From contig NZ_BAAAFA010000009.1 of the NCBI RefSeq assembly GCF_039523295.1, positions 104,217-144,216 on the forward strand: a stretch of 40,000 nt of DNA, written 5' to 3'. Source of the stretch: Colwellia asteriadis (GTDB lineage Bacteria > Pseudomonadota > Gammaproteobacteria > Enterobacterales > Alteromonadaceae). Position numbers and translations under genes: made by a program. Shown in pieces: positions 2,022 through 26,785 of the stretch. Each line of letters starts with the position of its first letter. Position 1 is the first letter of the stretch. Under the pieces are notes generated by a model, which worked only from the letters and a program-made list of their open reading frames with translations, was not told where the DNA came from and searched no databases.

Positions 2022-4604
2022 TTAGAAACGGTATTCTGCACCAGCGTAGTAAAAGGCGCCATTAAAGCCAAAAGGAGCTGAGCGACGAGAGTAAGTAAAT
2101 ACGCCAGGGCTACTAACAATTACGTTACCGCTAGCATCAACAATAGTCCCTGTTCTCGAGTTACCTATTTCGTTTTTATCAGGCATGACATCAAATAAAT
2201 TATTACCACCAATGTTAAATGATAATTGCTCGTTAACCTGATAACTAACACGTAAATCGGTTAGTATTTCAGCACCATAGGTTTGTCTACCACCATCGGT
2301 AACTGTGTATTCGCCGTAACGGTTAAATGCTAGATTAACGGTAAAGTCATTAATACGATACAAACCTGATAAGCTAATTCTATCTTGGGGTTGCCACTCT
2401 TCAATAATAGAAATATCTTGCTCGGAGAAAATATCCTCAGGTGGAATATCACCTAAGCCGCTATCGGGTGGTGTGAATATATTAACCACATCGGTTTCAG
2501 TAAAATTGGCTGCAAAGGTTAAGTCTAAATCACCACCGAGCATTTCACCGTTCCAAGTAGCAATAATATCTACCCCTTGTGTTTCTGTATCTGCACCATT
2601 TAGGAAGAATTGACCACCACCTGCGCCTGAGGCTTGCAGTGCAGCATCTAAGGCTGGAGATAAACCTTCACCCAACGAGTTACTTAAGACAATACGATCA
2701 TCAATATCAATGGTATAAAAATCAACGGTTAAGTTAATACTATCGGCTATTCTAATCACGGTTCCTAAGCTAAAGTTGGTTGACTCCTCTTCTTTTAATT
2801 GTGGGATACCAATGGCTTGCGCTAAGTTACTATCGTTTCTAAATGTTCCCACTTGAACAGCAATTTGATCGCCATCAGGATCATTCGGGTTGGTCTTAAA
2901 CTGTGTACTAATATTATTAAAGTAGAGCTGCTGCATTGACGGAGCTCTAAAGCCGGTACTCATTGCACCACGTAATGCAATATCTTCGGTAATTGACCAA
3001 TTCGCGGCAAGTTTGAAATTAGTGCTATCACCAAAGCCGTCATAATCATCGTAACGCACAGCGCCACTAACAATTAAATCATCGGTAATTTCCGTTTCAG
3101 CATCCAGATAAAATGAAATAACATCACGGGTTTCATCAACAGCCGATACCGGGCCTATACCGCCAAAGCCTTGAGTACCAGCACTTCTATCGGTGGGAAA
3201 TAAGCTAACACCATTTACGGTGTCGTAATCTCTATATGAATATTCTGCGCCAGGGGTTACTTTGTAAGTATCAGTGCGAATTTCAGCGCCCATTGCCAAT
3301 GAAAATAAGTCAAAATCTTGAGTATAATCAAGATTCAAGGTTGATAAGCTTAGCTCCAACCCGTAGGCAGAAGCTTCGCTAGGTACTGCAGCGCGAATTT
3401 CATCAGGAGTAATACTCGCTAAGGAGCCATCGTCATTGTACTGTAGTGCATTGGCATACGATGAATTAATCGTGTTGCTGGTGGTGTAATCAATGGTGTT
3501 TTGACCATAAGTGTAAGAAAAATCTAAACTGGCACCATTGTCAAATTCAGTTAAGTAGCCAAAGTTGTATGACATATCTTTAATATCTGAATTTATTTTA
3601 GGTAGAAACCCCATAGGAACAGTCGCGTCACCATCTTGTAGTGGCGCATTACCACCGGTATTGTTGTTATGACGAAAGAATGCGGCAGACTCGTTATCGC
3701 GATTAGAGTAGGTAATAAAACCATAAAGCTCACCTTCACCAAGCTCATAACCGGTATTTACGGTTAAACCAAACTGTTCAGAGTCGGCATCACCAATTCG
3801 AAAGGTATTACGAGGTGCCGTTGCTTCTCTTGGATCGCCAAGTAGTGAAGTACCATTACCTAAATCAGTACATCCCGAGAACTGACAAGAGCCATGCAAA
3901 CCTGCGCGATTAGTAAAACCTCTATCTCTAAAGTTAAGGGTGGTATTTAAATAGCCTTTATCGCCAAGTGCAAAGCCTTTTGAAATATCTATGTTAGTGG
4001 TTTCTCCATCACCTTCTGAATATTCACCGTAAGAAAGTGCGACTTTACCGCCTTCATCAGCGTCATCAAGAATGATATTAATAACACCAGCAATAGCGTC
4101 AGAGCCATACTGAGCGGCAGCGCCATCACGTAACACTTCAATGCGTTTTATTGAGGCGGCAGGAATCGCATTCATATCTGTTCCCGCGGTGCCTCGACCA
4201 ACAGAGGTATTAATGTGAATAAGGCTGGCTTGATGACGACGCTTGCCGTTTACCAATACTAAGGTTTGATCTGGGCCTAAACCCCTTAACGTTGCTGGTC
4301 TGAGTGCATCAGTGCCGTCACTAATGGCAGAGCTTGAAAAGTTAAATGAAGGTGCAATTGCTTGCAGCATTCTACCAACTTCTGTTTGACCTGTGTTTGC
4401 TAGTGCTTCTGCTGAAAGAATATCAACCGGCACTGGTAACTCATCAACAGAGCGACCACTGACGCGGCTACCAATAACAGATATTTGTTCTACGTCTTCT
4501 AATGAGGCTTTTGAGGGCTCTTGGGCTAAAGCACTTTGGCTAGCTACACCAAGTAAAATAGGTATTAGTGTGGTATTTATTATTTGTTTTTTACGATTGT
4601 ACAT
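2022..4604 (-). CDS. TonB-dependent outer-membrane receptor (860 aa)
   Basis: Signal peptide, TonB-box-like EQISVIGSR, plug-domain motifs (RVEVLRGxxxxxYGSDAIAGVINI) and terminal ..AGAEYRF beta-barrel signature. Confidence 0.9.
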   Translation of the reverse strand: MYNRKKQIINTTLIPILLGVASQSALAQEPSKASLEDVEQISVIGSRVSGRSVDELPVPVDILSAEALANTGQTEVGRMLQAIAPSFNFSSSAISDGTDALRPATLRGLGPDQTLVLVNGKRRHQASLIHINTSVGRGTAGTDMNAIPAASIKRIEVLRDGAAAQYGSDAIAGVINIILDDADEGGKVALSYGEYSEGDGETTNIDISKGFALGDKGYLNTTLNFRDRGFTNRAGLHGSCQFSGCTDLGNGTSLLGDPREATAPRNTFRIGDADSEQFGLTVNTGYELGEGELYGFITYSNRDNESAAFFRHNNNTGGNAPLQDGDATVPMGFLPKINSDIKDMSYNFGYLTEFDNGASLDFSYTYGQNTIDYTTSNTINSSYANALQYNDDGSLASITPDEIRAAVPSEASAYGLELSLSTLNLDYTQDFDLFSLAMGAEIRTDTYKVTPGAEYSYRDYDTVNGVSLFPTDRSAGTQGFGGIGPVSAVDETRDVISFYLDAETEITDDLIVSGAVRYDDYDGFGDSTNFKLAANWSITEDIALRGAMSTGFRAPSMQQLYFNNISTQFKTNPNDPDGDQIAVQVGTFRNDSNLAQAIGIPQLKEEESTNFSLGTVIRIADSINLTVDFYTIDIDDRIVLSNSLGEGLSPALDAALQASGAGGGQFFLNGADTETQGVDIIATWNGEMLGGDLDLTFAANFTETDVVNIFTPPDSGLGDIPPEDIFSEQDISIIEEWQPQDRISLSGLYRINDFTVNLAFNRYGEYTVTDGGRQTYGAEILTDLRVSYQVNEQLSFNIGGNNLFDVMPDKNEIGNSRTGTIVDASGNVIVSSPGVFTYSRRSAPFGFNGAFYYAGAEYRF

Positions 4605-4898
4605 TGTGAATATTCCCTATCATGTTTAGTAACTTAACTGCGTAAGCTATTAACAACATCGATTAACGTCCGTATTATTATCATTTATCGGTTGTAATCG
4701 AATAATAACCTTTTAATTCATTTACTTGCTAAAGCGTAGTCGAATAAAGTTAAAATACAATGTTTTTAAATAACTTGAGGGAAGGAGAGTGCCTGATAAG
4801 AAGTAATGCGCTGAGTAAGTCGAACTCAGGTTGATCAATAAAGCAGCCATAAAAGCGCGCTATGCAAATAATAAAAAACCGCTGCTATGTTAGTAATT

Positions 4899-5092
4899 AA
4901 CCTGAGCTCGGCTTAACAAATGTTTCTCTAGCAGCTACTTTTCCTAACTTCTTCGTTAAATTTACTTGCAATAGGCTAGCTATTGACGCGAAATTTGCCT
5001 TGAATTAAGAAAAACTATCAAGCTAGAGACTCAGAAAAGTAATTTTTCTGATATTTCAATTTGTTAAATATCTCTTAAACCGAGTTCAGGTT
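4899..5092 (+). mobile_element. MITE-like non-autonomous element, copy 1 (194 bp; 13-bp internal deletion relative to copies 2 and 3)
   Basis: Left end AACCTGAGCTCGGCTTAACAAAT. Reverse complement of the right end is AACCTGAACTCGGTTTAAGAG (16/18 terminal identity). Flanked by direct TAATT (4894-4898) and TAATT (5092-5096). The last T is ambiguous between the TIR and the duplication, so the TSD is 4 or 5 bp. Confidence 0.75.
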
Positions 5093-5147
5093 AATTAAAC
5101 ATGTGAGCGGCTTATTTATTGTTATAAAAATTTATTGCTATAAAAAT

Positions 5148-6395
5148 TTATTTTTTAGCGCGTTTGGCTTGTTTTTTCGCTTGCTTTTTTGCCTTGGCTT
5201 TTTTCTGTGACGTGGTCAGTTTTACTTTCGCTTTTTTGTTAGCAACGCGGGACTCTTTATGCTTAGGGCGAAGCTCTTCAATAACACGGCGCGATAAGCG
5301 CTCGTCAACGTAACGCTCAATTTTACCCACAACAGGCATATCATGCGCTTCAACTAATGATATTGCCGTGCCTTTATTACCAGCACGGCCGGTTCTGCCA
5401 ATACGGTGCACGTAAATATCTGTTTTACGTGGCATATCAAAGTTAATAACGTGGCTAATATCGTCAATATCTAAACCACGGGCGGCAACATCGGTGGCAA
5501 CTAATACTTTGATTTCACCACTTTTAAAACGCTCAATGGCTTTGTTACGTTTATCTTGCGGCATTTTGCCTTCAAGCCACACACAAGGCAGCTCTTCGGC
5601 ATATAATTTACCTGAAAGATATTGTACTGTTTCGCGTTTATTAGCAAAAACGACGGTACGATTAACGCCTTCTTGTTTAAGAATATGCACTAAAAGCTTT
5701 AATTTATGATCGCTATTATCAGCTAAGTGCAACCACTGATGAATAACCGCCTTTTCTTTACGTGACGGATTAGACTCTAAAAAGACTGGCTCATTTAATA
5801 CTTCTTTAGAAAAGCGTAAAACCCCAGCACCTTCTAATGTTGCCGAAAATAACATGGTTTGCTTACGCCAGCGTGCTTCGCCAACAATACGATCAATAGT
5901 TTCTCTAAAGCCCATATCAAGCATTCGGTCTGCTTCATCTAATACGAGAATTTCAATTTCACGAGCATCAAATTGCTCATTCTCAATGTATTCTAATAAA
6001 CGACCAGGGGTTGCCACTAAAATATCAGTGGTGCTATTTAAGATATCACTGTGACTACCATAATTAACGCCACCGGTAATAACACCCGTTTTAATATTGG
6101 TTAGTTCAGCAATTTTTTCACTGTCTTCACCGATTTGAATCGCTAATTCACGGGTTGGCGTTAAAATTAATACGCGAGGAAAGCCCGGTTGTGTTCTTGG
6201 GTAATCAAGTAAGTGTTGAGCAATTGGCAGTAAAAAAGCGGCGGTTTTGCCGGTTCCTGTCGGCGCAGAAGCAAGAATGTCTTTACCTTGCATCGCCTCA
6301 GGAATAACTAACTCTTGAATAGATGTTGGTTTGGTATAACCCGCTTTTTTGACACTGGCTAATAACTCAGAGTCGAGATCAAATTGCTCAAACAT
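5148..6395 (-). CDS. srmB: DEAD-box ATP-dependent RNA helicase, SrmB-like
   Basis: Motifs APTGTGKT, PTRELA, DEAD, SAT and HRIGRTGR, with a basic K/A-rich C-terminal tail. The N-terminal half is collinear with E. coli SrmB as I recall it. Confidence 0.7.
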   Translation of the reverse strand: MFEQFDLDSELLASVKKAGYTKPTSIQELVIPEAMQGKDILASAPTGTGKTAAFLLPIAQHLLDYPRTQPGFPRVLILTPTRELAIQIGEDSEKIAELTNIKTGVITGGVNYGSHSDILNSTTDILVATPGRLLEYIENEQFDAREIEILVLDEADRMLDMGFRETIDRIVGEARWRKQTMLFSATLEGAGVLRFSKEVLNEPVFLESNPSRKEKAVIHQWLHLADNSDHKLKLLVHILKQEGVNRTVVFANKRETVQYLSGKLYAEELPCVWLEGKMPQDKRNKAIERFKSGEIKVLVATDVAARGLDIDDISHVINFDMPRKTDIYVHRIGRTGRAGNKGTAISLVEAHDMPVVGKIERYVDERLSRRVIEELRPKHKESRVANKKAKVKLTTSQKKAKAKKQAKKQAKRAKK

Positions 6396-6500
6396 AGGGA
6401 ATAATTCACTAACTGTTAAATAAATACAAATATGGCGGCAATTATAGTGACTTTCGTGCTTGCTGTAACCCTTTAATCGTTAATGCTGGTCAATTACGGG

Positions 6501-7019
6501 TTAGAGTAACTCGCTATATTCAAGTAAAATTTGCTCACACCACTGCTCGATACGTTCATCGGTTAAATTATATTGGGTATCTTCATCTAAAGATAAACCA
6601 ACAAAGTGGCTTTCATCGTCACTCAGTGCTTTTGATGCGGTAAACTCGTAACCTTCATTTGGCCAGTAACCAATAACGTTAGCCTGTTGAACAAGTACTT
6701 GCTCGTGGAGCATACCTAAAGCATCTTGAAACCATTCGGTGTAACCAATTTGATCGCCCATGCCATACAAAGCAACAATTTTATCTGATAAATCAAGCGA
6801 GTTAATATCTTGCCAAATAGACTCCCAGTCTTCTTGTAGCTCGCCATAATCCCAGGTAGAAATACCAAAAATAATGAAGTCATAATCAAGGCAGAGTGAA
6901 AGTGGCTGATCTTTTATATTAAATATATCAACTAAATCTTCACCTATTGCTGCTTGTATTTTTTCAGCAACTATTTCAGTGTAACAAGTGGTTGAACCAT
7001 AAAATAAGCCTATTTTCAT
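6501..7019 (-). CDS. fldB: Long-chain flavodoxin, FldB-like
   Basis: MKIGLFYGSTTCYTE...STWDYGELQEDW...YGMGDQIGY..WF is near-collinear with E. coli flavodoxin 2. The position next to dsbC-recJ matches enterobacterial synteny. Confidence 0.8.
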   Translation of the reverse strand: MKIGLFYGSTTCYTEIVAEKIQAAIGEDLVDIFNIKDQPLSLCLDYDFIIFGISTWDYGELQEDWESIWQDINSLDLSDKIVALYGMGDQIGYTEWFQDALGMLHEQVLVQQANVIGYWPNEGYEFTASKALSDDESHFVGLSLDEDTQYNLTDERIEQWCEQILLEYSELL

Positions 7020-7322
7020 TTGCGATCTCGTTCGTTGGATTTACATCAATAATAAAATGGTGTTGTGTAACTTTGTGCTCTAAGTGCTTAGTTACCTAGA
7101 TTTAGTTACTTAAATTTAGTTATCTAGCGTAGTAAGTCATCATACTTAGTAACACTTTCGCTGAGTTTATCAGAAGATATGCCTTTAGTTTTGCTATTTA
7201 TCCGATAAAATAACCGTTTTAGCTAAAAAAATTGCAATATGTTTAACTAGGCTGTAATTTCACACGCTAAAGTACGGTCTTTAATGAAAGCTTAATTTTA
7301 TTCGTATTAATACATCACCTTT

Positions 7323-8123
7323 ATGGAAGTTTCTATGCACAGCAAATTTATTACCTATGTCATCACCGCGATAGTATTTATTGTACCGACCACGTTAGCC
7401 CAAGTAGCTATTGCGAATGAAAATGTACCCGCTTTAATCGCAAGCTCTCCTAGTGACAAATTTGATGCGCAAATGCTAAAAGAAGTCGTTGGAAATAAAT
7501 TAGGGCTAAATGTAGTTAAAGTTGAAAAAACACCAATGAATGATTTAGCGGCTATTCATACCGAGCAAGGACTTTTCTATTCTAGTTATAACGGTGAATT
7601 TTTAATTCATGGCAAACTTTATAGCATTAAAAATGAACTGACTGATTTAACCGAGCAAAGCTTAGCTGCTATACGTCTTGAAGGGGTAAAGTCATTTGCT
7701 AATGATGTTATTACGTATCCAGCTAAAGATGAAAAATATGTAGTGACAGTTTTTACTGATATTACTTGTGGTTATTGTCGTAAAATGCACGCTGAAATGG
7801 CTGAGTATAATAAACTCGGTATTACCTTTCGCTATTTAGCTTATCCGCGCTCAGGTATTAACGATCGTTTAGGTAACTTTACCGATGGCTTTAAAGATTT
7901 ACGCTCAGTGTGGTGTAATGATGACTCTGCCGATGCGTTAACACGAGCAAAATCAGGTGCAGGTATTGCTTATAGAATTTGTGATAAGCCTATTGAAGCG
8001 CAATTTAACTTTGGTCGCCAAATTGGTGTTACAGGTACACCAGCAATTATTTTGCCTAACGGTATGATGGTGCCAGGTTACAAGCCGCCAGCACAACTTG
8101 AAGCAATATTAAAAGAAGTTTAA
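7323..8123 (+). CDS. dsbC: Thiol:disulfide interchange protein DsbC
   Basis: Signal peptide, then FTDITCGYCRKMH active site (CGYC) and a ..GVTGTPAIILPNGMMVPGY..P tail as in DsbC. An alternative start at ATG 7335 has a better GGAAG Shine-Dalgarno. Confidence 0.85.
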   Translation: MEVSMHSKFITYVITAIVFIVPTTLAQVAIANENVPALIASSPSDKFDAQMLKEVVGNKLGLNVVKVEKTPMNDLAAIHTEQGLFYSSYNGEFLIHGKLYSIKNELTDLTEQSLAAIRLEGVKSFANDVITYPAKDEKYVVTVFTDITCGYCRKMHAEMAEYNKLGITFRYLAYPRSGINDRLGNFTDGFKDLRSVWCNDDSADALTRAKSGAGIAYRICDKPIEAQFNFGRQIGVTGTPAIILPNGMMVPGYKPPAQLEAILKEV

Positions 8124-8265
8124 TGTAAGAACCTTAATGTAAAGCCTTACATTGAAGTGTCATATAAAAAGCAGTGATCACGATCACTGCTTTTTTGTAA
8201 CTGGCTATTGAGTAAGTTTTTTAAATTACAGTATTTTATAAAAAAGATAAGAAGATTAGTAACCT

Positions 8266-10074
8266 ATGAGTAAAAAAATAATTCGTCGCACACCAGTAGA
8301 CTATAGCCATTTACCTCCTCATCTTCCTGCAATTATTAAACAAGTTTATGCCGCGCGAGCCGTTAAATCAGCAAGCGAACTTGAACTTAAAGTGAATAAC
8401 TTACATGGTGTTACCGAACTTGCTTCATCATTAATGGGTATAAATACTGCCTGTGAATTGCTGTATCAAGCCTTAATCAACAAAACACATATTATTATTG
8501 TGGGTGACTTTGATGCCGATGGTGCTACGAGCACCGCTTTAATGATGACAGCGTTTAACTTATTTGGTAGCACACATCATAACTTTATTGTGCCAAATCG
8601 TTTTGAATACGGTTATGGCTTAACTCCTGAAATAGTTGATATTGCAGCAAGCCAAGGAGCGCAACTGTTAATTACCGTCGATAATGGTATTAGCTGTATT
8701 GCGGGAGTGAAGCGCGCTAAAGACTTGGGAATGCAAGTGATTGTTACCGACCACCATTTACCAGGACATAGCTTGCCTAATGCTGATGCTATTGTTAACC
8801 CTAATCAAGTCGGCTGTACCTTCCCAAGCAAATCGCTTGCTGGTGTCGGTGTCGCTTTTTATGTCATGCTGGCGCTAAGAAAATATTGTCGCGAGCAAAA
8901 TTATTTCAGTGAATATCACATCCCTGAGCCTAATATTGCGCAGTTACTTGATTTAGTTGCCTTAGGTACAGTAGCTGATGTGGTCTCACTTGATGGCAAT
9001 AACCGTATTTTAGTTGAGCAAGGCTTAAAGCGTATAAGAGCAGGGCAAACTCGTCCGGGTATTCAGGCATTGATTGAAATTGCTAATAAAAACCAACAAC
9101 GCTTAGTGGCGAGCGATTTTGGCTTTGCACTCGGCCCAAGAATTAACGCGGCTGGACGTTTAGATGATATGGCTTATGGTATTAACTGTTTACTAGCGAG
9201 TGATTTATCAAGCGCAAGGGTAATGGCGGCAGAGCTTGATGATTTAAATAAAGCACGTCGTGAAATAGAGCAGGGTATGCAAGGTGAGGCTGAACGGGTG
9301 TTAAGTTCACTTAACTTCGATGCGTTTAACTTTAATGAAACGAGCACAGCAAAAGACAATAAAGCTGACTTTCCAAGTGCCATTGCACTGTATCAAAAAG
9401 ATTGGCATCAAGGGGTTATTGGTATTGTTGCCGGGCGTTTAAAAGAAAAATTTCACCGTCCCTGTATTGTTTTTGCCAATGGCAGTGATGATGAAGTCAA
9501 TGATGAGCAGTCGAGAGAAATAAAAGGCTCAGCGCGCTCTATTCCAGGGTTACATATTCGAGATTTATTAGAACATATTGACAGTCAACACCCTGGGCTT
9601 ATTCTGAAATTTGGTGGCCATGCCATGGCGGCAGGTTTATCAATAAAACAGTGTGACTTTACTCGTTTTCAAACTTTATTTGACCAATTAGCTAGTCAAT
9701 GGCTTAAACCTGAAGACTTACAGAGTATTATTTTATCTGACGGCGCTTTGCCGGTTGAAAATTTGAACCTAGACTTTGCTGAATTACTCAGAGATTCAGG
9801 ACCATGGGGACAAAACTTTCCTGAGCCATTATTCGACGATACTTTTACTTTAATTCAGCAGCGCATTGTTGGCGAAAAACATTTGAAAGTTGTGGTGCAA
9901 AAGTCGTCTAACGGAGGGAATCAAGTGTTTGACGGTATTGCTTTTAATATTGATATTAACGCTTGGCCTAATACTCAAGCTACACAAGTGCACTTAGCTT
10001 ATCGACTTGATGTGAATGAATTTAGAGGTAAACGTAGCGTGCAATTAATGATTGAAAATATCACCGCGGTGTAA
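8266..10074 (+). CDS. recJ: Single-stranded-DNA-specific exonuclease RecJ
   Basis: DHH-family motifs GDFDADGATS, DNG, VTDHH and FGGHAMAAG. Length and position downstream of dsbC fit. Confidence 0.92.
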   Translation: MSKKIIRRTPVDYSHLPPHLPAIIKQVYAARAVKSASELELKVNNLHGVTELASSLMGINTACELLYQALINKTHIIIVGDFDADGATSTALMMTAFNLFGSTHHNFIVPNRFEYGYGLTPEIVDIAASQGAQLLITVDNGISCIAGVKRAKDLGMQVIVTDHHLPGHSLPNADAIVNPNQVGCTFPSKSLAGVGVAFYVMLALRKYCREQNYFSEYHIPEPNIAQLLDLVALGTVADVVSLDGNNRILVEQGLKRIRAGQTRPGIQALIEIANKNQQRLVASDFGFALGPRINAAGRLDDMAYGINCLLASDLSSARVMAAELDDLNKARREIEQGMQGEAERVLSSLNFDAFNFNETSTAKDNKADFPSAIALYQKDWHQGVIGIVAGRLKEKFHRPCIVFANGSDDEVNDEQSREIKGSARSIPGLHIRDLLEHIDSQHPGLILKFGGHAMAAGLSIKQCDFTRFQTLFDQLASQWLKPEDLQSIILSDGALPVENLNLDFAELLRDSGPWGQNFPEPLFDDTFTLIQQRIVGEKHLKVVVQKSSNGGNQVFDGIAFNIDINAWPNTQATQVHLAYRLDVNEFRGKRSVQLMIENITAV

Positions 10075-10137
10075 CATACGTTTATTATTATAAAGATAAT
10101 GTAAATTTAGATATTGCGACAACATCGTGAGAAAGTA

Positions 10138-10842
10138 ATGGAAAATTCACTCGCAGCTATACCGTTAGCCAACCTTGCTATTGCATTTTTACCTGTATTG
10201 TTAGTGCTTATTATTTTAGTGCAATGGTCACTGCCTACTAAAAATACCTTACATGCCTTAGTGCGTATGCTAGTGCAATTATTGTTAGTCGGTTATGTAC
10301 TCAGTTATATTTTTGAAAGCGATAATGCTTGGGTAATTGGCTTACTATTATTACTGATGATAGCTGTTTCAAGTTGGATCGCGCTTAATAATATTGAGCA
10401 ACCTAAAATAGTGTTATTTAAGCAAACCTTTATCGCAATTTTTATTAGCGGTGTTTTTATTCTAATTGTCATAACACAAGGTGTATTACATTTATCACCT
10501 TGGTACCAACCGAAGGTTATTATTCCATTAGCAGGAATGGTTTTTGCTAACTGTATGAACAGTGTCAGCTTATCAGGAGAGCGATTTTTTTCTGAACGTC
10601 AACGTGCACAAACCTATATTAATGCGCGTAATATTGCCTTTAAGGCCTCAATGATCCCTAATGTTAATGCGCTTTTTGCGGTGGGAATAGTATCACTGCC
10701 GGGGATGATGACGGGGCAAATACTCGCAGGGGTATCCCCATTTATTGCCGCACGTTATCAAGTTATGGTGATGTGTATGATTTTTGCGTCAGCTGGCTTA
10801 GCTTCAGCTATTTTTTTAAGGTTAAATAAAGGTTATAAGTAG
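10138..10842 (+). CDS. UPF0014 / FetB(YbbM)-like ABC-type permease, no adjacent ATPase
   Basis: Polytopic membrane protein. QLLLVGYVLSYIF, IIPLAGMVFANCMN and GIVSLPGMMTGQILAG are collinear with E. coli FetB as recalled. The ORF track starts at TTG 10114; ATG 10138 is preferred. Confidence 0.65.
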   Translation: MENSLAAIPLANLAIAFLPVLLVLIILVQWSLPTKNTLHALVRMLVQLLLVGYVLSYIFESDNAWVIGLLLLLMIAVSSWIALNNIEQPKIVLFKQTFIAIFISGVFILIVITQGVLHLSPWYQPKVIIPLAGMVFANCMNSVSLSGERFFSERQRAQTYINARNIAFKASMIPNVNALFAVGIVSLPGMMTGQILAGVSPFIAARYQVMVMCMIFASAGLASAIFLRLNKGYK

Positions 10843-10871
10843 TTAAACATGGCCTTCTAATTTATCTTTAT

Positions 10872-13490
10872 TTATTGCTGCCAAACTTCATTGCACTGCC
10901 AGCTATCTATCCATTGCGGTATTTCATTGGCGGGCATCGGCTTGGCAATACCGTAGCCTTGTGCTAAGTCACAACCAAGCTTTAATAATGCTTTACCATG
11001 TTCAATTGTTTCGACACCCTCGGCTATGACGTTACGCTTGAAAGATTTAGCTAAAGCAATAACCCCTTCGACAATTGCCGAATCATCAGGATCGCATAGC
11101 ATATCTCGTACAAAGCTTTGATCTATTTTAATCAGGCTTGCAGGAAGACGTCTCAGGTAAGTTAAAGATGAATACCCGGTACCAAAGTCATCTAACGCAA
11201 AGTTTACGCCTAATTTTATGCACGCATTCATTGTAGCTGAGACATGGCTTATGTCGTCTAGAGCACTTGTTTCAAGCACTTCTAGCTCTAAGAGGTGAGG
11301 CTCAACATCTGGATGGCTTTTCAGTAACTTTATAATGTTTTTAGTGAACTTAGGTTGCTGTAACTGTACAGCAGCAATATTTACACTGATATTGAGCGGG
11401 GGATGAAGCCCCTGTTTTTGCCATTGACTAATTTGTGTTAAAGCTGAATTAATAACCCATTCACCCATTTCAATATTCATAGGGTTGTTTTCAATAATGG
11501 GTAAAAACTCAGCTGGGCTTAATAGCCCTTTTTTCGGATGTTGCCAGCGGATAAGAGCTTCAAAACCAATTACAGTACCAGATCTCATATTCACTTTGGG
11601 CTGATAATGAAGTACAAATTCATTATGATCTAAAGCATGACGAATAGCATTGAGGCCCTCTCGTTGTACTTTTACAGCATCATCTTGAGCTATATCAAAT
11701 AGATGGTGGCGATTTTTACCCCTTTCTTTTGCAATATACATAGCTTGATCAGCATGACGCATGAGTTGATCGGCATCAACGTTATCTTGTGGATAAAGAG
11801 TTACTCCAATGCTAGCGGAAACATTTAAAATGGCACCATTAACCATAACGGGATCCGATGCAGCTAATAAAAGACGCTCTAATATAGGCACGTAATCCAT
11901 TGGGGTAATTTTTTCCGGCAAGTTTGTTAATACAGCTACAAATTCATCTCCGCCAATACGAGCTAAGCTATCACCTTCGCGTAATGATGCTTTCATCAAC
12001 CCCGAAAGAGAAATTAGCAGTTCATCACCGATGTCGTGACCGTAAGCATCATTAATCGCTTTAAAACCGTCTAAATCTAGAAAAACTACAGCAAGAGACT
12101 GCTTTTGACGATTACACTGTAATAGTGCTTGAGATAGGCGATCTGCAAGCAATACCCGGTTGGGTAAATTAGTAAGTACGTCGAAATGTGCTATATGCTC
12201 TAACTGTTTTTGGTATTCTTTCATTGAAGTAATATCATTAGCTAAAATAACATAATGGCTAATTTTATTATGCTCATCACGTACAGCACTAATAGTTTGC
12301 ATTTCTGTATATTTTTTTCCGCTTTTATGACGACTAACTACCTCGCCGATCCAGTAGCCGTTAGCATTAACCTCTTCCCACATCACATCATGAAATTCGG
12401 GCGAATGAACATCAGACATTAAGGACTGTGGTTTTTTTCCTAATACTTCCTCATGATAGTAACCTGATACTTCACTAAACCGAGCATTAACATTAATAAT
12501 ATGATTATTTTCATCAGTAATGATAATACTTTCTCGCGCATGAGAAAATACGCTAGCAGCGAGCTTTAGTTTGTCTTCAGTATGTTTTTTTTCTATAGCA
12601 ATACTAGCTAAACTTGCAGTTTGCTCAATTACGGTAAGGTCTGCTTTGGTTGGTGCATTAATTTCATTATGGTATATAGCAAAAGTACCTAAAACGTCTC
12701 CCTCTGTAGATCTTATTGGCTCTGACCAGCAAGAAGCTAGCCCAGCTTCTTTAGCTAATCCTTTATAAGGCTCCCAATAAGGGTGACTTTCAATATCGTC
12801 TACAATAATACGCTCATTCATGAAAGCTGCTGTACCGCAAGAGCCAACACCGATGCCTATTTCGACGCCATGAATAGCTTCACTATAAAATGTAGGAAGA
12901 CGAGGGGCAGAGCCACTTATTAGATGTTGTCCTGAATTATCTAATAGTAAGATACTACAAATCATCTCAGGGTTATCTTGCTCAACAAGGTGCAAAATTG
13001 CATCAAGAATAATAGCTAGTGGCTTACCACTAGTAATAAGCTCTAATACATGGCGATGAGACTTTTTACGTAATTCGTTTTTTTTACGCTCAGTAATATC
13101 GTGTATGACGCCAATCAGGTAGCGATTACCTAAATTATCGGTGAAGCGACTTTTTCTTGTACTAATTATCTTAACTTGCTCAGCACTAAGGGTAAGTGTT
13201 TCTTCGCATAGAATCTCCTTTCCTTCTTCAAGGACTTTTTTATCAATAGCAAGAAAGTGCTCTCTTTCCGATGGGGGGACTTTTTCAGCTAACGTTTTAC
13301 CTATGATGCCTTTTCTTGATAGCCCAAATAGTTGGCAAAAAGCGTTATTAACTAGTATTAATTTACACTCATTATCTTTTACAAAGATAGGATCTCTTGT
13401 ATTAGTGAGAATTGCATGAAGGTAAAGCTTCGTTTGTTCATTATTTATGAAGGTTAACGTTGACGTATCTTGGCTTTCTTTAAACGTCAT
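10872..13490 (-). CDS. PAS-GAF-PAS-GGDEF-EAL cyclic-di-GMP signalling protein
   Basis: Intact RIGGDEF, EALIRW, DDFGTGYSS, KIDQSF and EGVET motifs. GAF-like central region and two PAS-like segments. Confidence 0.9.
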   Translation of the reverse strand: MTFKESQDTSTLTFINNEQTKLYLHAILTNTRDPIFVKDNECKLILVNNAFCQLFGLSRKGIIGKTLAEKVPPSEREHFLAIDKKVLEEGKEILCEETLTLSAEQVKIISTRKSRFTDNLGNRYLIGVIHDITERKKNELRKKSHRHVLELITSGKPLAIILDAILHLVEQDNPEMICSILLLDNSGQHLISGSAPRLPTFYSEAIHGVEIGIGVGSCGTAAFMNERIIVDDIESHPYWEPYKGLAKEAGLASCWSEPIRSTEGDVLGTFAIYHNEINAPTKADLTVIEQTASLASIAIEKKHTEDKLKLAASVFSHARESIIITDENNHIINVNARFSEVSGYYHEEVLGKKPQSLMSDVHSPEFHDVMWEEVNANGYWIGEVVSRHKSGKKYTEMQTISAVRDEHNKISHYVILANDITSMKEYQKQLEHIAHFDVLTNLPNRVLLADRLSQALLQCNRQKQSLAVVFLDLDGFKAINDAYGHDIGDELLISLSGLMKASLREGDSLARIGGDEFVAVLTNLPEKITPMDYVPILERLLLAASDPVMVNGAILNVSASIGVTLYPQDNVDADQLMRHADQAMYIAKERGKNRHHLFDIAQDDAVKVQREGLNAIRHALDHNEFVLHYQPKVNMRSGTVIGFEALIRWQHPKKGLLSPAEFLPIIENNPMNIEMGEWVINSALTQISQWQKQGLHPPLNISVNIAAVQLQQPKFTKNIIKLLKSHPDVEPHLLELEVLETSALDDISHVSATMNACIKLGVNFALDDFGTGYSSLTYLRRLPASLIKIDQSFVRDMLCDPDDSAIVEGVIALAKSFKRNVIAEGVETIEHGKALLKLGCDLAQGYGIAKPMPANEIPQWIDSWQCNEVWQQ

Positions 13491-13545
13491 TTAGTCTCTT
13501 CCTTGTGAAATAAAATTATAATGTTAAAGCTATTGTTAGGTATAT

Positions 13546-13583
13546 AACCTGAACGCGGTTTAAGAGATATTTAATAAATTGAC
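13546..13583 (-). repeat. Solo right-end fragment of the MITE-like element, inverted orientation
   Basis: AACCTGAACGCGGTTTAAGAGATATTTAATAAATTGAC closely matches the reverse complement of the right end of the full copies. Lies 56 bp upstream of the GGDEF/EAL start codon. Confidence 0.65.
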
Positions 13584-13685
13584 TTAATTTGTTTTATAAA
13601 ACCTATCATTCGTTAGTTTTAAATATAGCAAAGAGATTATTTTATGAAAGTTATATAGCTTATTAGCCCGTATTACTTACTAAAT

Positions 13686-13892
13686 AACCTGAGCTCGGCT
13701 TAACAAATGTTTATCTAGCAGCTACTTTTCCTAACTTCTTCGTTAAATTTACTTGCAATAGGCCAGCTATTGACGCGAAATTTGCCTTGCTTATCATATG
13801 AAAAGAAGAAAAACTATCAAGCTAGAGACTCATAAAAGTAATTTTTACTGATATTTCAATTTGTTAAATATCTCTTAAGCTGAGTTCAGGTT
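13686..13892 (+). mobile_element. MITE-like element, copy 2 (207 bp)
   Basis: Same TIRs as copy 1. Flanked by direct TAAAT (13681-13685) and TAAAT (13892-13896). Internal TTGACG-N16-TATCAT (13770-13797) points rightward. Confidence 0.8.
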
Positions 13893-14194
13893 AAATAATA
13901 ACAGTAATCAGATTTGATGAATTTCGATTTTCATTAAGACGCCTATTTTTAAATCACCGATAATGTCACGATAAGTTTTACATTTACTATTTGATTTTTA
14001 ACGGTTTATTTTTATTTTCGTTCAGTAGTATAAAAATTATATTCTTGCAGAATAAAAGGTGCTACATTCTGCAAATCACGATACTTTCATCGATTATCAC
14101 GAACTCAAAATCCGTCCTACATCAACTGAAAAAATCCTAAAGACTACGTATCGCGATAATAACTTTGGTCTAATTTTTTTAAGGAATATCAAAC

Positions 14195-15640
14195 GTGTAT
14201 AAAACACTTATTGTAGTGGATGATGAATACGTTGCATTGGATAAAGATCGCAGCGATGTGATCAGTTTTGAAAAGTATTTACGTGAGTACCCAAAACTAA
14301 ATGAGCCGAAAACACGTATTATTAATTTATGTGACACCGAACAATACTTAAGCAAAGGTTACTATTGCTCACTATTGGCAGAGGCGCGCAACCATATTGT
14401 GTTACCTAGCGTAAAAACTATTAATGGTTTACGTAATTTAGCGCATGATAGCGATAACTTTGCGGTATTATCACATTTAACTATTGGCCTTAATACGGTT
14501 ACTAATAAACATGTGTTTTTTGGTAAAAGTGATAGCAGTGAGTTAGATAAATTAACAGCAAAAATTTTTGCATTATACCCAGCCCCGTTATTAAATTTAT
14601 CGGTACAACAGCTTAATGGTCAAGCAAATATTACCATTACTCGTATGTCATTTTGTGATCTTGATGAAGCGCAAAAGCAGTGCTTTTTAACACAACTTGA
14701 AGGCTTTAATAAAACCTTATGGCGAATTAATAACAGTCGTAAAAACTATCGTTGGGATATGGCTATATTAGTCGACCATCAAGATAAAGTGCCGCCAAGT
14801 AATAAAGAAGCTATTTCACGTTTTGTAAAAGCCGCGGCCAAATTTGGTATTAACGCCAACGTGGTAAGTATTGATCAAATTGATAATATCGCTCATTACG
14901 ATGCTTTATTTATTCGAGAAACCACTGCGATAGATCACCATACTTATCGTTTAGCACGAAAAGCTGAAGATTTAGGGTTAGTTGTAATAGACGACTCAAC
15001 CTCTATTTTACGCTGTTGTAATAAAGTGTATTTACACGATGCTTTTAATTATAAAAAGGTACGTAGTTTAAAAACTGAAGTGGTTAACAACCAAAGTGTA
15101 GAAACCATTACAGCACTAGAGCAAGCGTTTACTTACCCTGTGGTATTGAAATTGCCTGAAGGCTCTTTCTCTAATGGCGTATTTAAAGCGAAAAATAGGG
15201 AAGAGCTGTCAGCTAAATTAGACGAGCTATTAAAAGTGAGTGCATTGGTATTAGTACAAGAATACTTATATACCGAGTTTGACTGGCGCATTGGCGTATT
15301 AAACGGTAGAGCTATTTATGCTTGTAAATATTTAATGGCGCGCGGACATTGGCAAATTTATAACCACAGCGCTAAACGCTTTTTCTCAGGTGATTTTGAA
15401 ACGCTGCCAACGTTTGAAGTGCCTAAATATGTTTTAGATTCAGCATTACGCGCAGCAAGTGTCGTTGGCACAGGGCTTTATGGCGTAGATATTAAGGCTG
15501 TTGATAATAAAGCCTATGTACTTGAAGTGAATGATAACCCGAGCATAGATTACAAAGTTGAAGATGCCTACCTAAAAGATGAATTATACATGCAAGTTAT
15601 GGCAGAGTTTAATCGTCGCTTAGAAGAGCGTGGTCGATAA
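14195..15640 (+). CDS. RimK-type ATP-grasp amino-acid/peptide ligase with N-terminal RLAN-like domain
   Basis: GTG start with AAGGAA 8 nt upstream. The N-terminus (..YLSKGYYCSLLAEARNHIVLPS..) resembles the RimK-like ATP-grasp N-terminal domain. The C-terminal half has an ATP-grasp layout (..PVVLKLPEGSFSNGV..VLVQEY..DWRIGVLNG..YGVDIK..VLEVNDNPS). Confidence 0.75.
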   Translation: MYKTLIVVDDEYVALDKDRSDVISFEKYLREYPKLNEPKTRIINLCDTEQYLSKGYYCSLLAEARNHIVLPSVKTINGLRNLAHDSDNFAVLSHLTIGLNTVTNKHVFFGKSDSSELDKLTAKIFALYPAPLLNLSVQQLNGQANITITRMSFCDLDEAQKQCFLTQLEGFNKTLWRINNSRKNYRWDMAILVDHQDKVPPSNKEAISRFVKAAAKFGINANVVSIDQIDNIAHYDALFIRETTAIDHHTYRLARKAEDLGLVVIDDSTSILRCCNKVYLHDAFNYKKVRSLKTEVVNNQSVETITALEQAFTYPVVLKLPEGSFSNGVFKAKNREELSAKLDELLKVSALVLVQEYLYTEFDWRIGVLNGRAIYACKYLMARGHWQIYNHSAKRFFSGDFETLPTFEVPKYVLDSALRAASVVGTGLYGVDIKAVDNKAYVLEVNDNPSIDYKVEDAYLKDELYMQVMAEFNRRLEERGR

Positions 15641-15642
15641 TA

Positions 15643-16779
15643 ATGGCTAACACACGGGGCAATGTGCATTACCGTATCGCACAAAGTAGCGATTTAAATG
15701 CTTTAGTCGCTCTAGAGAATAACTGTTTCGAGCAAGACAAATTAAGTAAGCGTAGTTTACAGCATTGGATCAAAGCGCATCACGGTATTTTATTAATCGC
15801 CGAGCGTTATATTGACGCGAGCTCTGAGCTTCAACAGCTTATTGGTTATGGCTTAGTTTGGTGTCATAAAGGTACGCGTTTAGCACGTTTATATTCTTTA
15901 GCGGTAGCGCCAGCGTGTCGAGGACAGCATATTGCCAGCGGTCTTTTAGCGCAACTTGAACAAGAAACGCTAATACGTAACCATTATTTTTTACGCTTAG
16001 AAGTGGCTAAGAACAATGGCGCAGCCATTAAGTTATACCAGGGTTTAGGTTATCGTGTTTTTGGTGAATACAGTGATTATTATGAGGATCACAGTGATGC
16101 TTATCGTATGCAAAAACAGCTATTACGAAAAACACCATCAGACTTTCAAACCATAACACCTTGGTACCAACAAACCACTGAGTTTACCTGTGGTCCAGCC
16201 TCATTAATGATGGCAATGAACAGTTTACATGCTCCAATAGTGATGACGCAGCGTTTAGAATTAGACTTGTGGCGTGAAGCAACCACCATTTTTATGACCT
16301 CAGGTCATGGTGGTTGTCATCCTGTTGGCTTAGGTAACGCTGCTAAAAAGCGAGGTTTTGACGCTAAAGTTTTTATTAACCAGCAAACTCCTTTATTTGT
16401 CGATGGAGTAAGAGCCCCTCATAAAAAGCACATTATGCAAAGTGTCCATCAACAATTTATTGAAGACGCTCAAGCGCTGGCGGTTGATGTGAGGTTTGAT
16501 GATATTAATCAACACCAGCTGGCGAAATTACTCAGTGATGGCTATGCGGTTATTTTATTAATTAGCACCTACCGCTTAGATGGAAAAAAAGCACCGCACT
16601 GGGTTACCGTGACCGGTTTTGATGAATTATGCTTTTATGTGAACGATCCAGACTTAGACGATAAACAGCAGCTACCTATTGATTGCCAATATTTACCAAT
16701 ATCAGGTGATGACTTCGACAAAATGTCGATGTTTGGCGGTGGAAAACTACGTACTGCAGTGGCAATTAAACGATCGTAA
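15643..16779 (+). CDS. Fusion protein: N-terminal GNAT (RimI-like) acetyltransferase and C-terminal C39-like papain-fold cysteine peptidase
   Basis: GNAT acetyl-CoA motif region (..LAVAPACRGQHIASGLL..YQGLGYRV). The C-terminal part has TEFTCGPASLMMAM (candidate catalytic Cys), ..APHWVTVTG (His) and VNDPD (Asp). Start is 2 nt after the ATP-grasp stop. Confidence 0.7.
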   Translation: MANTRGNVHYRIAQSSDLNALVALENNCFEQDKLSKRSLQHWIKAHHGILLIAERYIDASSELQQLIGYGLVWCHKGTRLARLYSLAVAPACRGQHIASGLLAQLEQETLIRNHYFLRLEVAKNNGAAIKLYQGLGYRVFGEYSDYYEDHSDAYRMQKQLLRKTPSDFQTITPWYQQTTEFTCGPASLMMAMNSLHAPIVMTQRLELDLWREATTIFMTSGHGGCHPVGLGNAAKKRGFDAKVFINQQTPLFVDGVRAPHKKHIMQSVHQQFIEDAQALAVDVRFDDINQHQLAKLLSDGYAVILLISTYRLDGKKAPHWVTVTGFDELCFYVNDPDLDDKQQLPIDCQYLPISGDDFDKMSMFGGGKLRTAVAIKRS

Positions 16780-16961
16780 AAGCAGAACATTACCATCGTT
16801 TACATGGCAGCAGCTATTCAATTTATAGCCGTTTATTTACCCCCATATTTACGTTACAATGCGCGACTATTTGCGTTTTGTCGCTTGCCGTATTTTTTGC
16901 GTGGTAATTTAAGTCAGTCAATGGCGTTATTAAATTAGCGTTGACCACGCGCTAGCAACAA

Positions 16962-17007
16962 TCGCTAACATGCCATAACTATTAGGAATGTTAGCGGATA
17001 TTTTTTC
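16962..17007 (+). terminator. Rho-independent terminator candidate after the ATP-grasp/GNAT operon
   Basis: TCGCTAACAT (16962-16971) pairs with ATGTTAGCGA-like (16988-16998), followed by TATTTTTT. Confidence 0.45.
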
Positions 17008-17065
17008 AAAACGTCTATGTAATAAATTGATATAATTACAATAATTTAAAGTATTCAGAAGGCTT

Positions 17066-18164
17066 ATGTTCGAAACTAACCCAGTATTAAGTAAGTTAAA
17101 AGAAATTCGCGAGCGTGCAAACCTGCTTAGGGGGTACCTTTGACTACGATGTTAAAGCCGAGCGCTTAATTGAAGTTACCCGCGAATTAGAATTACCCGA
17201 TGTTTGGAATGAACCAGAAAGAGCGCAAGCGCTAGGAAAAGAGCGTAGCGCGCTTGAAGAAGTCGTAAAAACTATTGTTGAGCTTGAAACAGGCTGTGAA
17301 GATATTGAAGGCTTAGTGGAACTTGCTGTTGAAGAATCTGATCAAGATACTTTTGACGATGCAACAGCTGAAGCCGAAGCGCTTGATGCCGTTTTGGAAA
17401 AATTAGAGTTTCGTCGTATGTTTTCTGGCGAGCAAGACGCCAACAACTGTTATTTAGATATTCAATCAGGATCAGGCGGCACCGAAGCGCAAGACTGGGC
17501 AGAAATGCTGATGCGTATGTATTTACGCTGGGGTGAAGCACATGGTTATAAAACCGAAGCCATTGAAGTTACTGATGGCGATGTTGCTGGCATTAAAGGT
17601 TGTACGATAAAATACACCGGTGAATTTGCTTATGGCTGGTTACGTACTGAAACAGGGGTTCACCGTTTGGTTCGTAAATCACCGTTTGACTCATCTGGTC
17701 GTCGTCATACCTCATTTGCTTCAGCGTTTATTTACCCTGAAATAGATGACAATATTGATATTGACATTAACCCAGCTGATTTACGTACCGATACTTTCCG
17801 TGCTTCAGGTGCTGGTGGTCAGCATGTTAACAAAACAGACTCAGCAATTCGTATTACCCATATTCCAACGGGCGCTGTGGTTGCTTGTCAGGCTGACAGA
17901 TCACAACATAAAAACCGCGCGACTGCGATGAAGTTGCTTAAAGCCAAGCTTTATGAAATGGAAATACAAAAGCAAAACGAAGGCAAACAAGAATTAGAAG
18001 ATGGAAAATCAGATATTGGTTGGGGCAGTCAAATTCGCTCTTACGTACTTGATGATAGCCGTATTAAAGATTTAAGAACGGGTGTTGAAAACAGAAACAC
18101 TCAAGCCGTACTTGACGGTGATTTAGATAAATTTATTGAAGCGAGTTTAAAGTCTGGCTTGTAA
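17066..18164 (+). CDS. prfB: Peptide chain release factor 2, expressed by programmed +1 frameshift (17066..17140 joined to 17142..18164)
   Basis: Frame 0 reads [25 protein letters not shown] then in-frame TGA at 17141. The +1 frame continues DYDVKAERL... through the SPF and GGQ ([11 protein letters not shown]) motifs. Confidence 0.93.
17129..17144 (+). promoter_or_regulatory. prfB autoregulatory +1 frameshift site
   Basis: AGGGGGTACCTTTGAC is an internal Shine-Dalgarno-like AGGGGG, 3 nt, then slippery CTT followed by TGA C. E. coli has AGGGGGUAUCUUUGAC. Confidence 0.9.
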
Positions 18165-18221
18165 AATTACTGAATTACCTTTGAACCTATTGAACAAATT
18201 ACAGATAACTTTGGAAATAAA

Positions 18222-19814
18222 ATGACAGATAAAGCCAATAAAACCAGCCAAGAAAATAATGCATCCGCAGCGCAAGATGAAAACAAGCTAATTGCTGAGC
18301 GCCGCGTAAAACTTGAGAAAATTCGCTCAAATTCTACGGCGAATGGTTTTCCTAATGATTTCAATCGCGAACATTTAGCGGCAGACATTCAAGCGGAACA
18401 TGGTGAAAAAACCAAAGAAGAGCTTGAAACACTGCAACTCACTTATGCTATTGCTGGTCGTATTATGGCTAAACGTGGACCATTTTTAGTAATTCAAGAC
18501 TCATCGGGTCGTATTCAAGGTTACGCTGAAAAAACTGTACAAAAAGAAATTCGTGAAAAGTGGGGCTCGTTAGATATTGGCGATATCGTAGGTATTAAAG
18601 GTATTTTACATAAGTCAGGTAAAGGCGACCTTTACGTTAATATGGACGAATACTCATTACTAACTAAATCACTGCGTCCGTTACCAGAAAAATTCCACGG
18701 CTTGTCTGATCAAGAAATGAAGTATCGTCAGCGTTACGTTGATTTAATTATCAATGAAGACACACGTAACACCTTTAAAATCCGTTCAAAAATTGTTGCG
18801 GGTATTCGTAACTTTTTAACACAACGTGATTTTATGGAAGTTGAAACGCCAATGTTGCAAATCATACCTGGTGGCGCAACAGCCAAACCATTTATGACGC
18901 ACCACAACACGTTTGATCTTGATATGTATTTACGTATCGCGCCTGAATTAAACTTGAAGCGTTTAGTGGTAGGTGGCTTTGACCGTGTATTTGAAATCAA
19001 CAGAAGCTTTCGTAATGAAGGTATTTCAACACGTCACAATCCAGAATTTACGATGATCGAATTCTATCAAGCCTATGCTGATTACCATGACTTGATGAAC
19101 ACTACTGAAGACATGCTTCGTACTATTGCGCAAGATGTTTTAGGTACAACGACTATTCGTAATACCGTTAAAAATAGTGATGGCGAAGTAGTAGAAGAGA
19201 AATTCTATGACCTAGGTAAGCCGTTTGCACGTCTTTCAATGGTTGATGCTATTTTACAATACGGTAAAGATCACCGCGGTGCAGAGCAACTTGATGAAGC
19301 AGCATTACGTGATCCAGAAAACAACTTTGATGCGATTAAAGCGATGGCAAAAGCAGTTGGCGTAAAAGAAAGTGATGCGTCTAAAGTGTGGGGACCTGGT
19401 AAATACATCTGTGAAATTTTTGAAGAAGTAGCAGAGCATTTATTAGACCAGCCAACGTTCATTACAGAATACCCGTGGGAAGTTTCACCGCTTGCGCGTC
19501 GTAACGATGAAAACCCATTCATCACAGATCGTTTTGAATTCTTTGTTGGTGGTCGTGAGTTGGCTAACGGTTTCTCAGAGCTTAATGATGCAGAAGACCA
19601 AGCTGAACGTTTCCAAAAGCAAGTAACAGAAAAAGATGCGGGTGACGATGAGGCAATGCATTATGATGCTGATTATATCAATGCGCTTGAATACGGTTTA
19701 CCGCCAACTGCCGGTGAAGGTATTGGTATCGATCGTTTAGTAATGTTATTTACTGATTCACCAAGCATTAAAGACGTTATTTTGTTCCCACATATGCGCC
19801 CTGAAGCTGAGTAA
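18222..19814 (+). CDS. lysS: Lysine--tRNA ligase (class II)
   Basis: Class II motifs [20 protein letters not shown] and [12 protein letters not shown]. Immediately downstream of prfB as in E. coli. Confidence 0.93.
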
Positions 19815-19872
19815 ATCGTTTAGAAAGGGATTTTAGTTACCCTGAACTTTCTTTCTCAAGCGACACGTAATA

Positions 19873-19900
19873 AAAAGCCAAACATATGTTTGGCTTTTTA
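19873..19900 (+). terminator. lysS rho-independent terminator
   Basis: AAAAGCCAAACA (19873-19884) pairs with TGTTTGGCTTTT (19887-19898), followed by a T-run. Confidence 0.75.
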
Positions 19901-20246
19901 ATTTTAGAAAGTGCCTAAAGGTTTTAATTATTTTAGGTGCTTATCAAAAAATGCCAACATCTCCGTTAATGTTTGAATACGATGCTTTTGTACACTAAAA
20001 ATTGAATTTATATCTGAACTTGTAAGTTCAAAAGTAGGACTTTACTTAAACTAACCATTTAGTACGCTAAGATGATGTTAACTACTGGTTATTTTTTAGG
20101 TCAGTAATTAGCCAATTGCTGACATTAAGCCTTTGCAAATTCAGGAGCATATTTACTTAAATATTAATCAAGACTTTCTGCTCGTCTGTTAGACGGGTGT
20201 AAGCTCATTGCTGCCATTGATTGATCATATCCAATACTAGCTAGCA

Positions 20247-20281
20247 CAACAAAAGCCTTAGCCATTAACTAATAAGGCTGT
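20247..20281 (-). terminator. Terminator candidate for the RexAB-like operon
   Basis: On the minus strand AGCCTTA (20273-20279) pairs with TAAGGCT (20254-20260), followed by TTTGTTG. Lies 35 bp past the 159-aa ORF stop. Confidence 0.45.
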
Positions 20282-20313
20282 TGCAGCTTATTGATAACGC
20301 AAGTGTGGCCTAA

Positions 20314-20793
20314 TTAACTTTGTGTTGAATTCTTGGTCTGATTAATAGCTGATGTAGTTATTAATGCTATGTGTATAAAATTCACTACTATCAATGTAAG
20401 TATTATTTTTAGCCAAATAATTGTTTGGCCTGAAAGCAACATTAATATACATAAGCTAAAAGTGAATAATAAAAATGTGATTGCGGCAGCATATAAGTGA
20501 TAGAAAAGCTTAAGGTAACCAGCATTGCGCCATAATGTAAAGCTAGGGTTGTTTGATACTGAAAGAATATAAGCCCCTATTGCAGCTATGAAACCTGTCA
20601 TAGTCATACTGAATGACGTTAATATGCTAATCAATAAATCAGTATTTTTAGGAACTATGTGAGGAAAGAGTGATACACCAATACATTTAGTTATGATCCA
20701 ATAAATAAAAAGTAAAGCAGGGCTAAGTAATGCAGATATTAACCATATTCCTCTTGCAAATGATTTGATTTCATCATTGGAAAGCTGACGCAT
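20314..20793 (-). CDS. Four-TM small membrane protein, RexB-like (candidate membrane effector)
   Basis: 159 aa with four long hydrophobic segments. The segment ..NFIHIAL.. near the C-terminus and a central ..GY.. loop resemble lambda RexB (144 aa, 4 TM, ..SFIHICIL..) as recalled. ATG lies 2 nt after the upstream stop, with GAAGG upstream. Confidence 0.55.
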   Translation of the reverse strand: MRQLSNDEIKSFARGIWLISALLSPALLFIYWIITKCIGVSLFPHIVPKNTDLLISILTSFSMTMTGFIAAIGAYILSVSNNPSFTLWRNAGYLKLFYHLYAAAITFLLFTFSLCILMLLSGQTIIWLKIILTLIVVNFIHIALITTSAINQTKNSTQS

Positions 20794-20795
20794 GT

Positions 20796-21773: not shown

Positions 21774-21812
21774 GGCCTTTTATTAATCCGTGGCAGGGAA
21801 TCCTATAAATCA

Positions 21813-21842
21813 ACTATACCTTTAAAAATGATGTTCAGTCAA
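21813..21842 (-). promoter_or_regulatory. Sigma70-type promoter candidate for the RexAB-like operon
   Basis: Minus strand reads TTGACT (21842-21837), 18-nt spacer, TATAGT (21818-21813). About 40 bp upstream of the start at 21773. Confidence 0.4.
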
Positions 21843-26760: not shown

Positions 26761-26785
26761 AGTTTTTCTCGTTTTTTGATTAGTT

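Follow-up and report, generated by a model that had tools for sequence, protein, structure and literature searches.

A MITE (a non-autonomous transposable element) derived from an IS982-family insertion sequence (IS) has already been published: MITECca01 (with ISCca4), from the Cardinium endosymbiont of Oedothorax gibbosus (PMC9769881). The repeat family described here from Colwellia asteriadis resembles it in being gene-less and of ~200 to 240 nt, in having inverted repeats that match an IS982-family IS, in its many copies, and in being thought to be moved in trans. It differs in host phylum and sequence, in spanning genera and families with a core of separate origin, and in that the intact parent IS resides in the same Cardinium genome, whereas the Colwellia asteriadis assembly has none. 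The ISs of the IS982 family (IS982, IS1187, ISAba4, ISAba825, and the 991- to 1013-nt elements of Colwellia maritima and other congeners) share with the MITE the features of their 18-nt ends, the asymmetry of those ends, their subterminal motifs, and their flanks; they differ from it in that the MITE has no transposase gene and a central 110 nt that is unrelated to the IS interior. The Correia elements of Neisseria are likewise short intergenic repeats bounded by terminal inverted repeats (TIRs) that occupy A/T-rich, TA-containing targets, form hairpins in transcripts, and come in length variants produced by internal indels, some of which carry promoter elements; however, their sequence is unrelated, their duplication is TA, and their mobilising transposase is unknown, whereas a cognate IS family can be named for the Colwellia MITE. 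RUP of Streptococcus pneumoniae, related to IS630-Spn1, is another non-autonomous repeat whose ends and target rule link it to one particular IS, but with a different IS family, a TA target, and a length of 107 nt.

Our analysis starts from a window of 40,000 nt (contig C9, positions 104217 to 144216) in a draft assembly of 4.10 Mb, 45 contigs, and 38% G+C. A preliminary description of this window had reported an element with inverted-repeat ends at 4899-5092, 13686-13892, and 26786-26992, and all three copies are indeed present, all on the plus strand, with 18-nt TIRs as described and genuine flanking direct repeats (TAATT, TAAAT, and TAGTT). Copy 1 (4899-5092, 194 nt) has its left TIR, AACCTGAGCTCGGCTTAA, at 4899-4916 on the plus strand and its right TIR at 5075-5092 on the minus strand (reverse complement AACCTGAACTCGGTTTAA), the latter accompanied by a subterminal AAATTGAA motif; their counterparts in IS982-type ISs are the transposase-distal (IRR) and transposase-proximal (IRL) ends, respectively. 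The element is flanked by AATT at 4895-4898, preceded by an invariant T at 4894, and by AATT at 5093-5096, with an invariant A next at 5097. Its interior holds, on the plus strand, the two arms of an 8-bp inverted repeat (5′ arm TCTCTAGC at 4925-4932; 3′ arm GCTAGAGA at 5022-5029) and between them a conserved core hairpin, CAATAG-N5-CTATTG, at 4969-4988, which overlaps a conserved TTGACG. Copy 2 is flanked by AAAT at 13682-13685 and 13893-13896, and copy 3 by AGTT at 26782-26785 and 26993-26996.

Searching the window with the TIR pattern AACCTGARCTCGGYTTAA and allowing up to 3 mismatches returned 10 matches, versus 0.1 expected from shuffled sequence. Apart from the ends of the three copies, these include a solo IRL-type end in inverted orientation at 13546-13582 (minus strand; TIR with 1 mismatch), a solo IRL-type end at 34401-34457 (plus strand), a truncated copy that lacks a left end in its vicinity, and a degraded TIR-like 18-mer at 4815-4832 (minus strand; 3 mismatches), possibly a remnant of an older copy. 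An older copy at 4640-4832 was considered and rejected: a longer alignment with the element scores 42, which does not stand out from shuffles (mean 36 and maximum 57).

Across the genome, BLAST with copy 2 as the query identified 58 full-length copies and ~45 fragments on 13 contigs. The elements measure 194 to 209 nt and have no open reading frame longer than 28 aa (longest, 24 to 28 aa). The uniform orientation seen in the window does not extend beyond it, as both orientations are present genome-wide. The copies form two subfamilies: one of 195 nt, with 17 members that include copy 1 (mean pairwise identity, 95%; the nearest relatives of copy 1 are 99% identical to it), and one of 207 nt, with 41 members that include copies 2 and 3 (mean identity, 90%). 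The two are separated by a 12-nt indel, and the inserted stretch, CTTATCATATGA (13790-13801, plus strand, in copy 2), varies hardly at all among the 41 long copies. What had been taken for a private 13-bp deletion in copy 1 is thus this 12-nt subfamily marker, and its polarity is the reverse: the short form occurs across the genus and the order, and because the elements of other species and genera are of this form, it is the long form that carries an insertion and the form of copy 1 that is ancestral.

All 58 copies conform to a common flank anatomy, T-ANNT-[AACCTGA…TCAGGTT]-ANNT-A, with a T at −5 in 57 copies and an A at +5 in 55. The direct repeats first noticed at three sites hold genome-wide: 45 of the 58 copies have a perfect 4-nt duplication and 12 more have one with a single mismatch, whereas random re-pairing of left and right flanks yields 8 identical pairs on average and never more than 17. 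Eight distinct tetranucleotides serve as the duplication, and the insertion target is a near-palindrome, TA-R-Y-TA. The invariance of the outer T and A leaves 2, 4, and 6 nt as possible true lengths of the duplication, and its length can vary by one, as shown by ANNN or 5-nt ANNNT duplications at copies in other genera. Facing TIR pairs only 42 to 55 nt apart also occur genome-wide, and in two other genomes (G013:C1:407073-407127 and G017:C1:1586142-1586183), as do deletion derivatives of 80 to 180 nt; such short forms resemble minimal, “TIR-only” members of the MITE family.

Direct evidence for movement comes from contigs of four public sequencing runs (two from isolates of one organism, one from another sample, and one from an oyster metagenome), which we compared with positions 4300-24299 of the window and whose flanks differ from it by ~0.5 to 1%. 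All four contain a joint of 4893 to 5092 that leaves out 198 nt and in which 7 letters (TAATTAA) are ambiguous. In run X2, a contig of 6068 nt bridges the site of copy 1, continuing straight from 4300-4893 into 5092-6402. The empty allele reads …gttag-TAATTA-aacatg…, with the target present once. Copy 1 is a strain-specific insertion, with an exact empty site in each of these four near-identical strains or samples. Precise deletion in an ancestor of the four other samples, in place of a recent insertion, could in principle produce the same polymorphism. The left junction of copy 2 is also found in runs X2 and X3, which makes copy 2 older than copy 1. No orthologous empty sites were recovered in other species, in which the flanking gene has ~72% amino acid identity at best and the neighboring genes differ. 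The same comparison revealed a second difference between strains, at 20308-21641, which has zero depth in all four runs; for this reason, two minus-strand ORFs (20314-20793, 159 aa; 20796-21773, 325 aa) look strain-specific and possibly mark an indel or a small island.

A second, internal proof of mobility is provided by a long-form copy at positions 143624-143830 of contig C5 (L047, 1125-1331), which lies within the degenerate gene of an IS3-family transposase: once the MITE and one AAAT are taken out, the C-terminal reading frame again runs through the junction without a break (…SLKKEWLLNIYHLTRSDMKEDVEVYIRYYNQIRLH…). The family has been recently mobile in Colwellia asteriadis. Small non-coding size, TIRs, duplications that vary from copy to copy, many dispersed copies, and occupied and empty sites together identify it as a MITE.

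Beyond this genome, BLAST detected the element in 18 of 24 sampled Colwellia congeners; at the level of the order, it was present in 20 of 251 genomes, belonging to four families and to 8 of the 87 genera sampled. Exact matching of the core (TGCAATAG-N5-CTATTGACG-N9-10-CCTTG) in one genome per species returned at least 115 stretches; among the matches listed are Colwellia, Pseudocolwellia, Litorilituus, Thalassotalea, Pseudoalteromonas, Shewanella, Catenovulum, and an Alteromonadaceae MAG. When 80 loci were read, 77 of 82 core matches lay inside a TIR-bounded element, of which 72 measure 194 to 199 nt and 50 have a perfect 4-nt duplication. The family is widespread in marine Alteromonadales. 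The matches in Pseudoalteromonas chromosome-II records have no annotation under them, and literature searches found no published description of the family; it appears to be undescribed, although elements of this kind are well known.

The interior of the element is structured as well as conserved. The element folds into a long imperfect hairpin (−50.8 kcal/mol, versus −36.5 ± 3.8 for shuffles; z = −3.8), and its internal 8-bp inverted repeat is 89% paired when 94 distinct elements of several genera are compared. This helix, which may be a second protein site or a DNA or RNA structure, has 74 compensatory cells, versus an average of 19 and never more than 31 in column shuffles and at most 17 in slid registers, although the sequences are related and these counts overstate their independence; a single pair can appear as T-A, A-T, or C-G. 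The TIRs are at least 87% paired at 16 of 18 positions over the same 94 elements, and this helix covaries too, as would be predicted for two ends that have to be recognized by a single protein. In the CAATAG-N5-CTATTG hairpin, the stem is invariant and the loop is free to vary across genera. The RNAalifold consensus of the 94 elements contains a small hairpin only, the long-range helices having been assessed by explicit pair counts. Element positions ~135 to 165 are unconserved and scrambled, whereas the core is conserved across families. In the long subfamily, the 12-nt insertion creates promoter-like −10 boxes on both strands, giving the pairs TTGACG-16-TATCAT (plus) and TTGATA-16-TATGAT (minus), each with 10 of 12 matches.

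These features raise the possibility, compatible with a MITE and, in our assessment, an unlikely one, that the core is also a functional module for the host, which would supply outward promoters in both directions (in the long subfamily) and, upon read-through, a hairpin affecting mRNA stability or termination. The near invariance of the insertion in 41 copies, its two promoter-like box pairs, and the conservation of the core beside a scrambled segment are consistent with such a role, and IS982-family ends are known to supply promoters (PMC9330008). Against it, a promoter scan of the region yielded 2 sites versus 4.0 in shuffles, i.e., no excess; the −10 boxes are lacking in the ancestral short form; sister strains do without copy 1, which is therefore dispensable; and the conservation equally fits selection for transposition competence or recent horizontal spread. 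Similarly doubtful is the broader proposal that the ~110-nt core (CAATAG hairpin, TTGACG…GCCTTG block, and an 8-bp helix that covaries across Colwellia, Pseudoalteromonas, Shewanella, and relatives) might be a functional nucleic acid module (a transposition enhancer, host-factor site, regulatory RNA, or promoter cassette) that IS982 transposases would have spread through marine Alteromonadales, with the element still active in a genome without the cognate transposase.

With respect to genes, all 58 copies are intergenic. Fifty-six of them are flanked by two called genes, which are convergent in 22 cases (39%, versus 16% of all intergenic spacers), divergent in 5, and co-directional in 29 (with the copy antisense to them in 20 and sense in 9). 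Copy 1 has srmB/TonB-receptor genes as its neighbors. Stop codons adjoin many copies, the stop being supplied either by the TAR of the target or by a T plus the AA of the element, such that insertion there is harmless. Elsewhere in intergenic space of the window, 32605-33360 holds four tandem copies of a ~170-nt unit (66 to 91% identical), upstream of the ORF at 33435-34055. Another repeated class in this genome consists of small contigs (C25, C26, C27, and C34; L008 to L010 and L014) with polymorphic-toxin immunity-type genes (PoNi, Tdi1/GAD-like, and ankyrin), which suggests duplicated T6SS or toxin-immunity cassettes.

Which enzyme moves the family is a separate question, approached through the ends. 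In ISfinder, the IS982 family is characterized by “AC” ends and duplications of 3 to 9 nt, and we therefore searched the genus for IS982 transposases, applying model NF033520 at a cut-off of 130 bits to 55 congener genomes. Matches above the cut-off were present in 13 of the 55 (up to 284 bits; 273 to 284 bits for the transposases of the elements whose ends match those of the MITE). These congener ISs, of 991 to 1013 nt, have ends such as AACCTGAGATCTGCTTAA, AACCTCAGCTCGGGATAA, and AACCTGAATCTTGTTTAA, conforming to the pattern AACCT[GC]AG.TC.G..TAA, and are thus the ISs with matching AACCTGA termini that the preliminary description had suggested looking for. Their TIRs are identical to those of the MITE at 14 to 16 of 18 positions (16 of 18 between the left TIR of copy 1 and the left end of congener IS L049), and the same left/right asymmetry is common to both: the left end of the MITE, GAG…GCTTAA followed by TTTCTCTAGC, resembles the transposase-distal IS end (GAG…GCTTAAG followed by TTTTCTAGA), and its right end, GAA…GTTTAAGA followed by the subterminal motif, resembles the transposase-proximal IS end. 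Flanks agree as well, since 13 of the 15 delimited IS copies (from two to three genomes) are bounded by T-ANNT…ANNT-A with a perfect 4-nt duplication, as in the MITE. TIR variants of the MITE by taxon (…CTCTGGATAA, …CTCGGGATAA, and …CTCGGCTTAA) resemble the IS982 TIR variants seen in Colwellia. No similarity to IS interiors was found for the central 110 nt.

From this agreement, we consider it highly probable that the repeat is a non-autonomous transposable element of an IS982-family IS, and the early reading of a MITE mobilised in trans by a transposase absent from the window has gained support. The element is composed of two 18-nt TIRs plus ~35 to 45 nt of subterminal sequence from each IS end, with no gene and with a ~110-nt core of separate origin in between. 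An IS982-type DDE transposase, supplied in trans, would bind both ends and insert the element into A/T-rich palindromic T-A-R-Y-T-A sites, and repair of the staggered cut would leave the 4-nt, occasionally 5-nt, duplication. The assignment of the IS982 transposase as the mobilising enzyme is inferred from these likenesses in sequence.

Such an enzyme is missing from the organism’s own 45-contig assembly: there were zero matches to NF033520, not even a remnant, and tblastn with five congener IS982 transposases returned nothing below E = 1. No IS with TIRs identical to those of the Colwellia asteriadis MITE has been found so far. The absence of the enzyme contrasts with the polymorphism of copy 1 among ~99%-identical strains; the transposase may have disappeared, may lie in sequence that was not assembled, or may have come on a replicon that was only transiently present. 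Other candidate parents were rejected. Pairs of TIRs 0.3 to 8 kb apart in the genome enclosed only housekeeping genes or were unrelated solo ends, and the TIR matches listed for genomes G013 and G017 likewise yielded no parent element. The IS4-family element on contig C24 has unrelated ends (CAATGCCAGTCAGTTAAG), as does the IS3-family element on contig C29 (TGAAGTGGCATAG/TGAAGTGG…), and the IS4 remnant on contig C5 and the IS481 remnant on contig C8 are unrelated to the MITE. DDE_3 (IS630) and IS1595 transposases are absent from the assembly, whose ISs, apart from these IS4- and IS3-family elements, consist only of remnants (IS4, IS3, and IS481). Contig C24 (L007) is a complete IS4-family element of 1428 nt with a 447-aa transposase, bounded by the TIRs given above. 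The IS3-family element, of ~1.26 kb, is multicopy (contig C29, both ends of C7, the start of C8, and the end of C11), breaks the assembly at these places, and has interrupted the IS481-family remnant on contig C8.

That one of these two elements, on contig C24 or at the contig ends, supplies the transposase that moves the MITE in Colwellia asteriadis is very improbable. The assembly yielded no intact transposases other than theirs, and IS3-family elements make 3- to 5-nt duplications according to ISfinder, but their TIRs (CAATGCCAGTCAGTTAAG and TGAAGTGGCATAG) are unlike that of the MITE (AACCTGAGCTCGG), with which IS982-type ISs agree in ends, asymmetry, and target. Least probable of all is a conserved structured regulatory repeat (REP, ERIC, or sRNA gene-like) spread by recombination or duplication, its inverted ends being merely a hairpin: the stable fold, the conserved core with its compensatory changes, and the enrichment of copies downstream of genes would suit such a repeat, but it is largely refuted by a site-specific 4-nt duplication at each copy, an exact empty site in sister strains, copies that are not at orthologous positions, ends equal to those of a transposase-bearing IS (REP and ERIC repeats show neither duplications nor kinship to an IS with a DDE transposase), and Rfam searches that gave no match in the window and only chance-level ones (E ≥ 0.9) on the element.

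Recognition of this MITE family adds an unannotated repeat class of ~100 sites, ~0.4% of the genome, that recurs in many marine gammaproteobacterial genera. Its copies are presence/absence markers at the level of strains, and in the long subfamily, the promoter-like insertion and the hairpin could alter the expression of neighboring genes, such as the ATP-grasp operon adjacent to copy 2. IS982-type elements are the likely engine of the family, which in Colwellia asteriadis presents a clear case of a MITE family outliving, or uncoupled from, its transposase.
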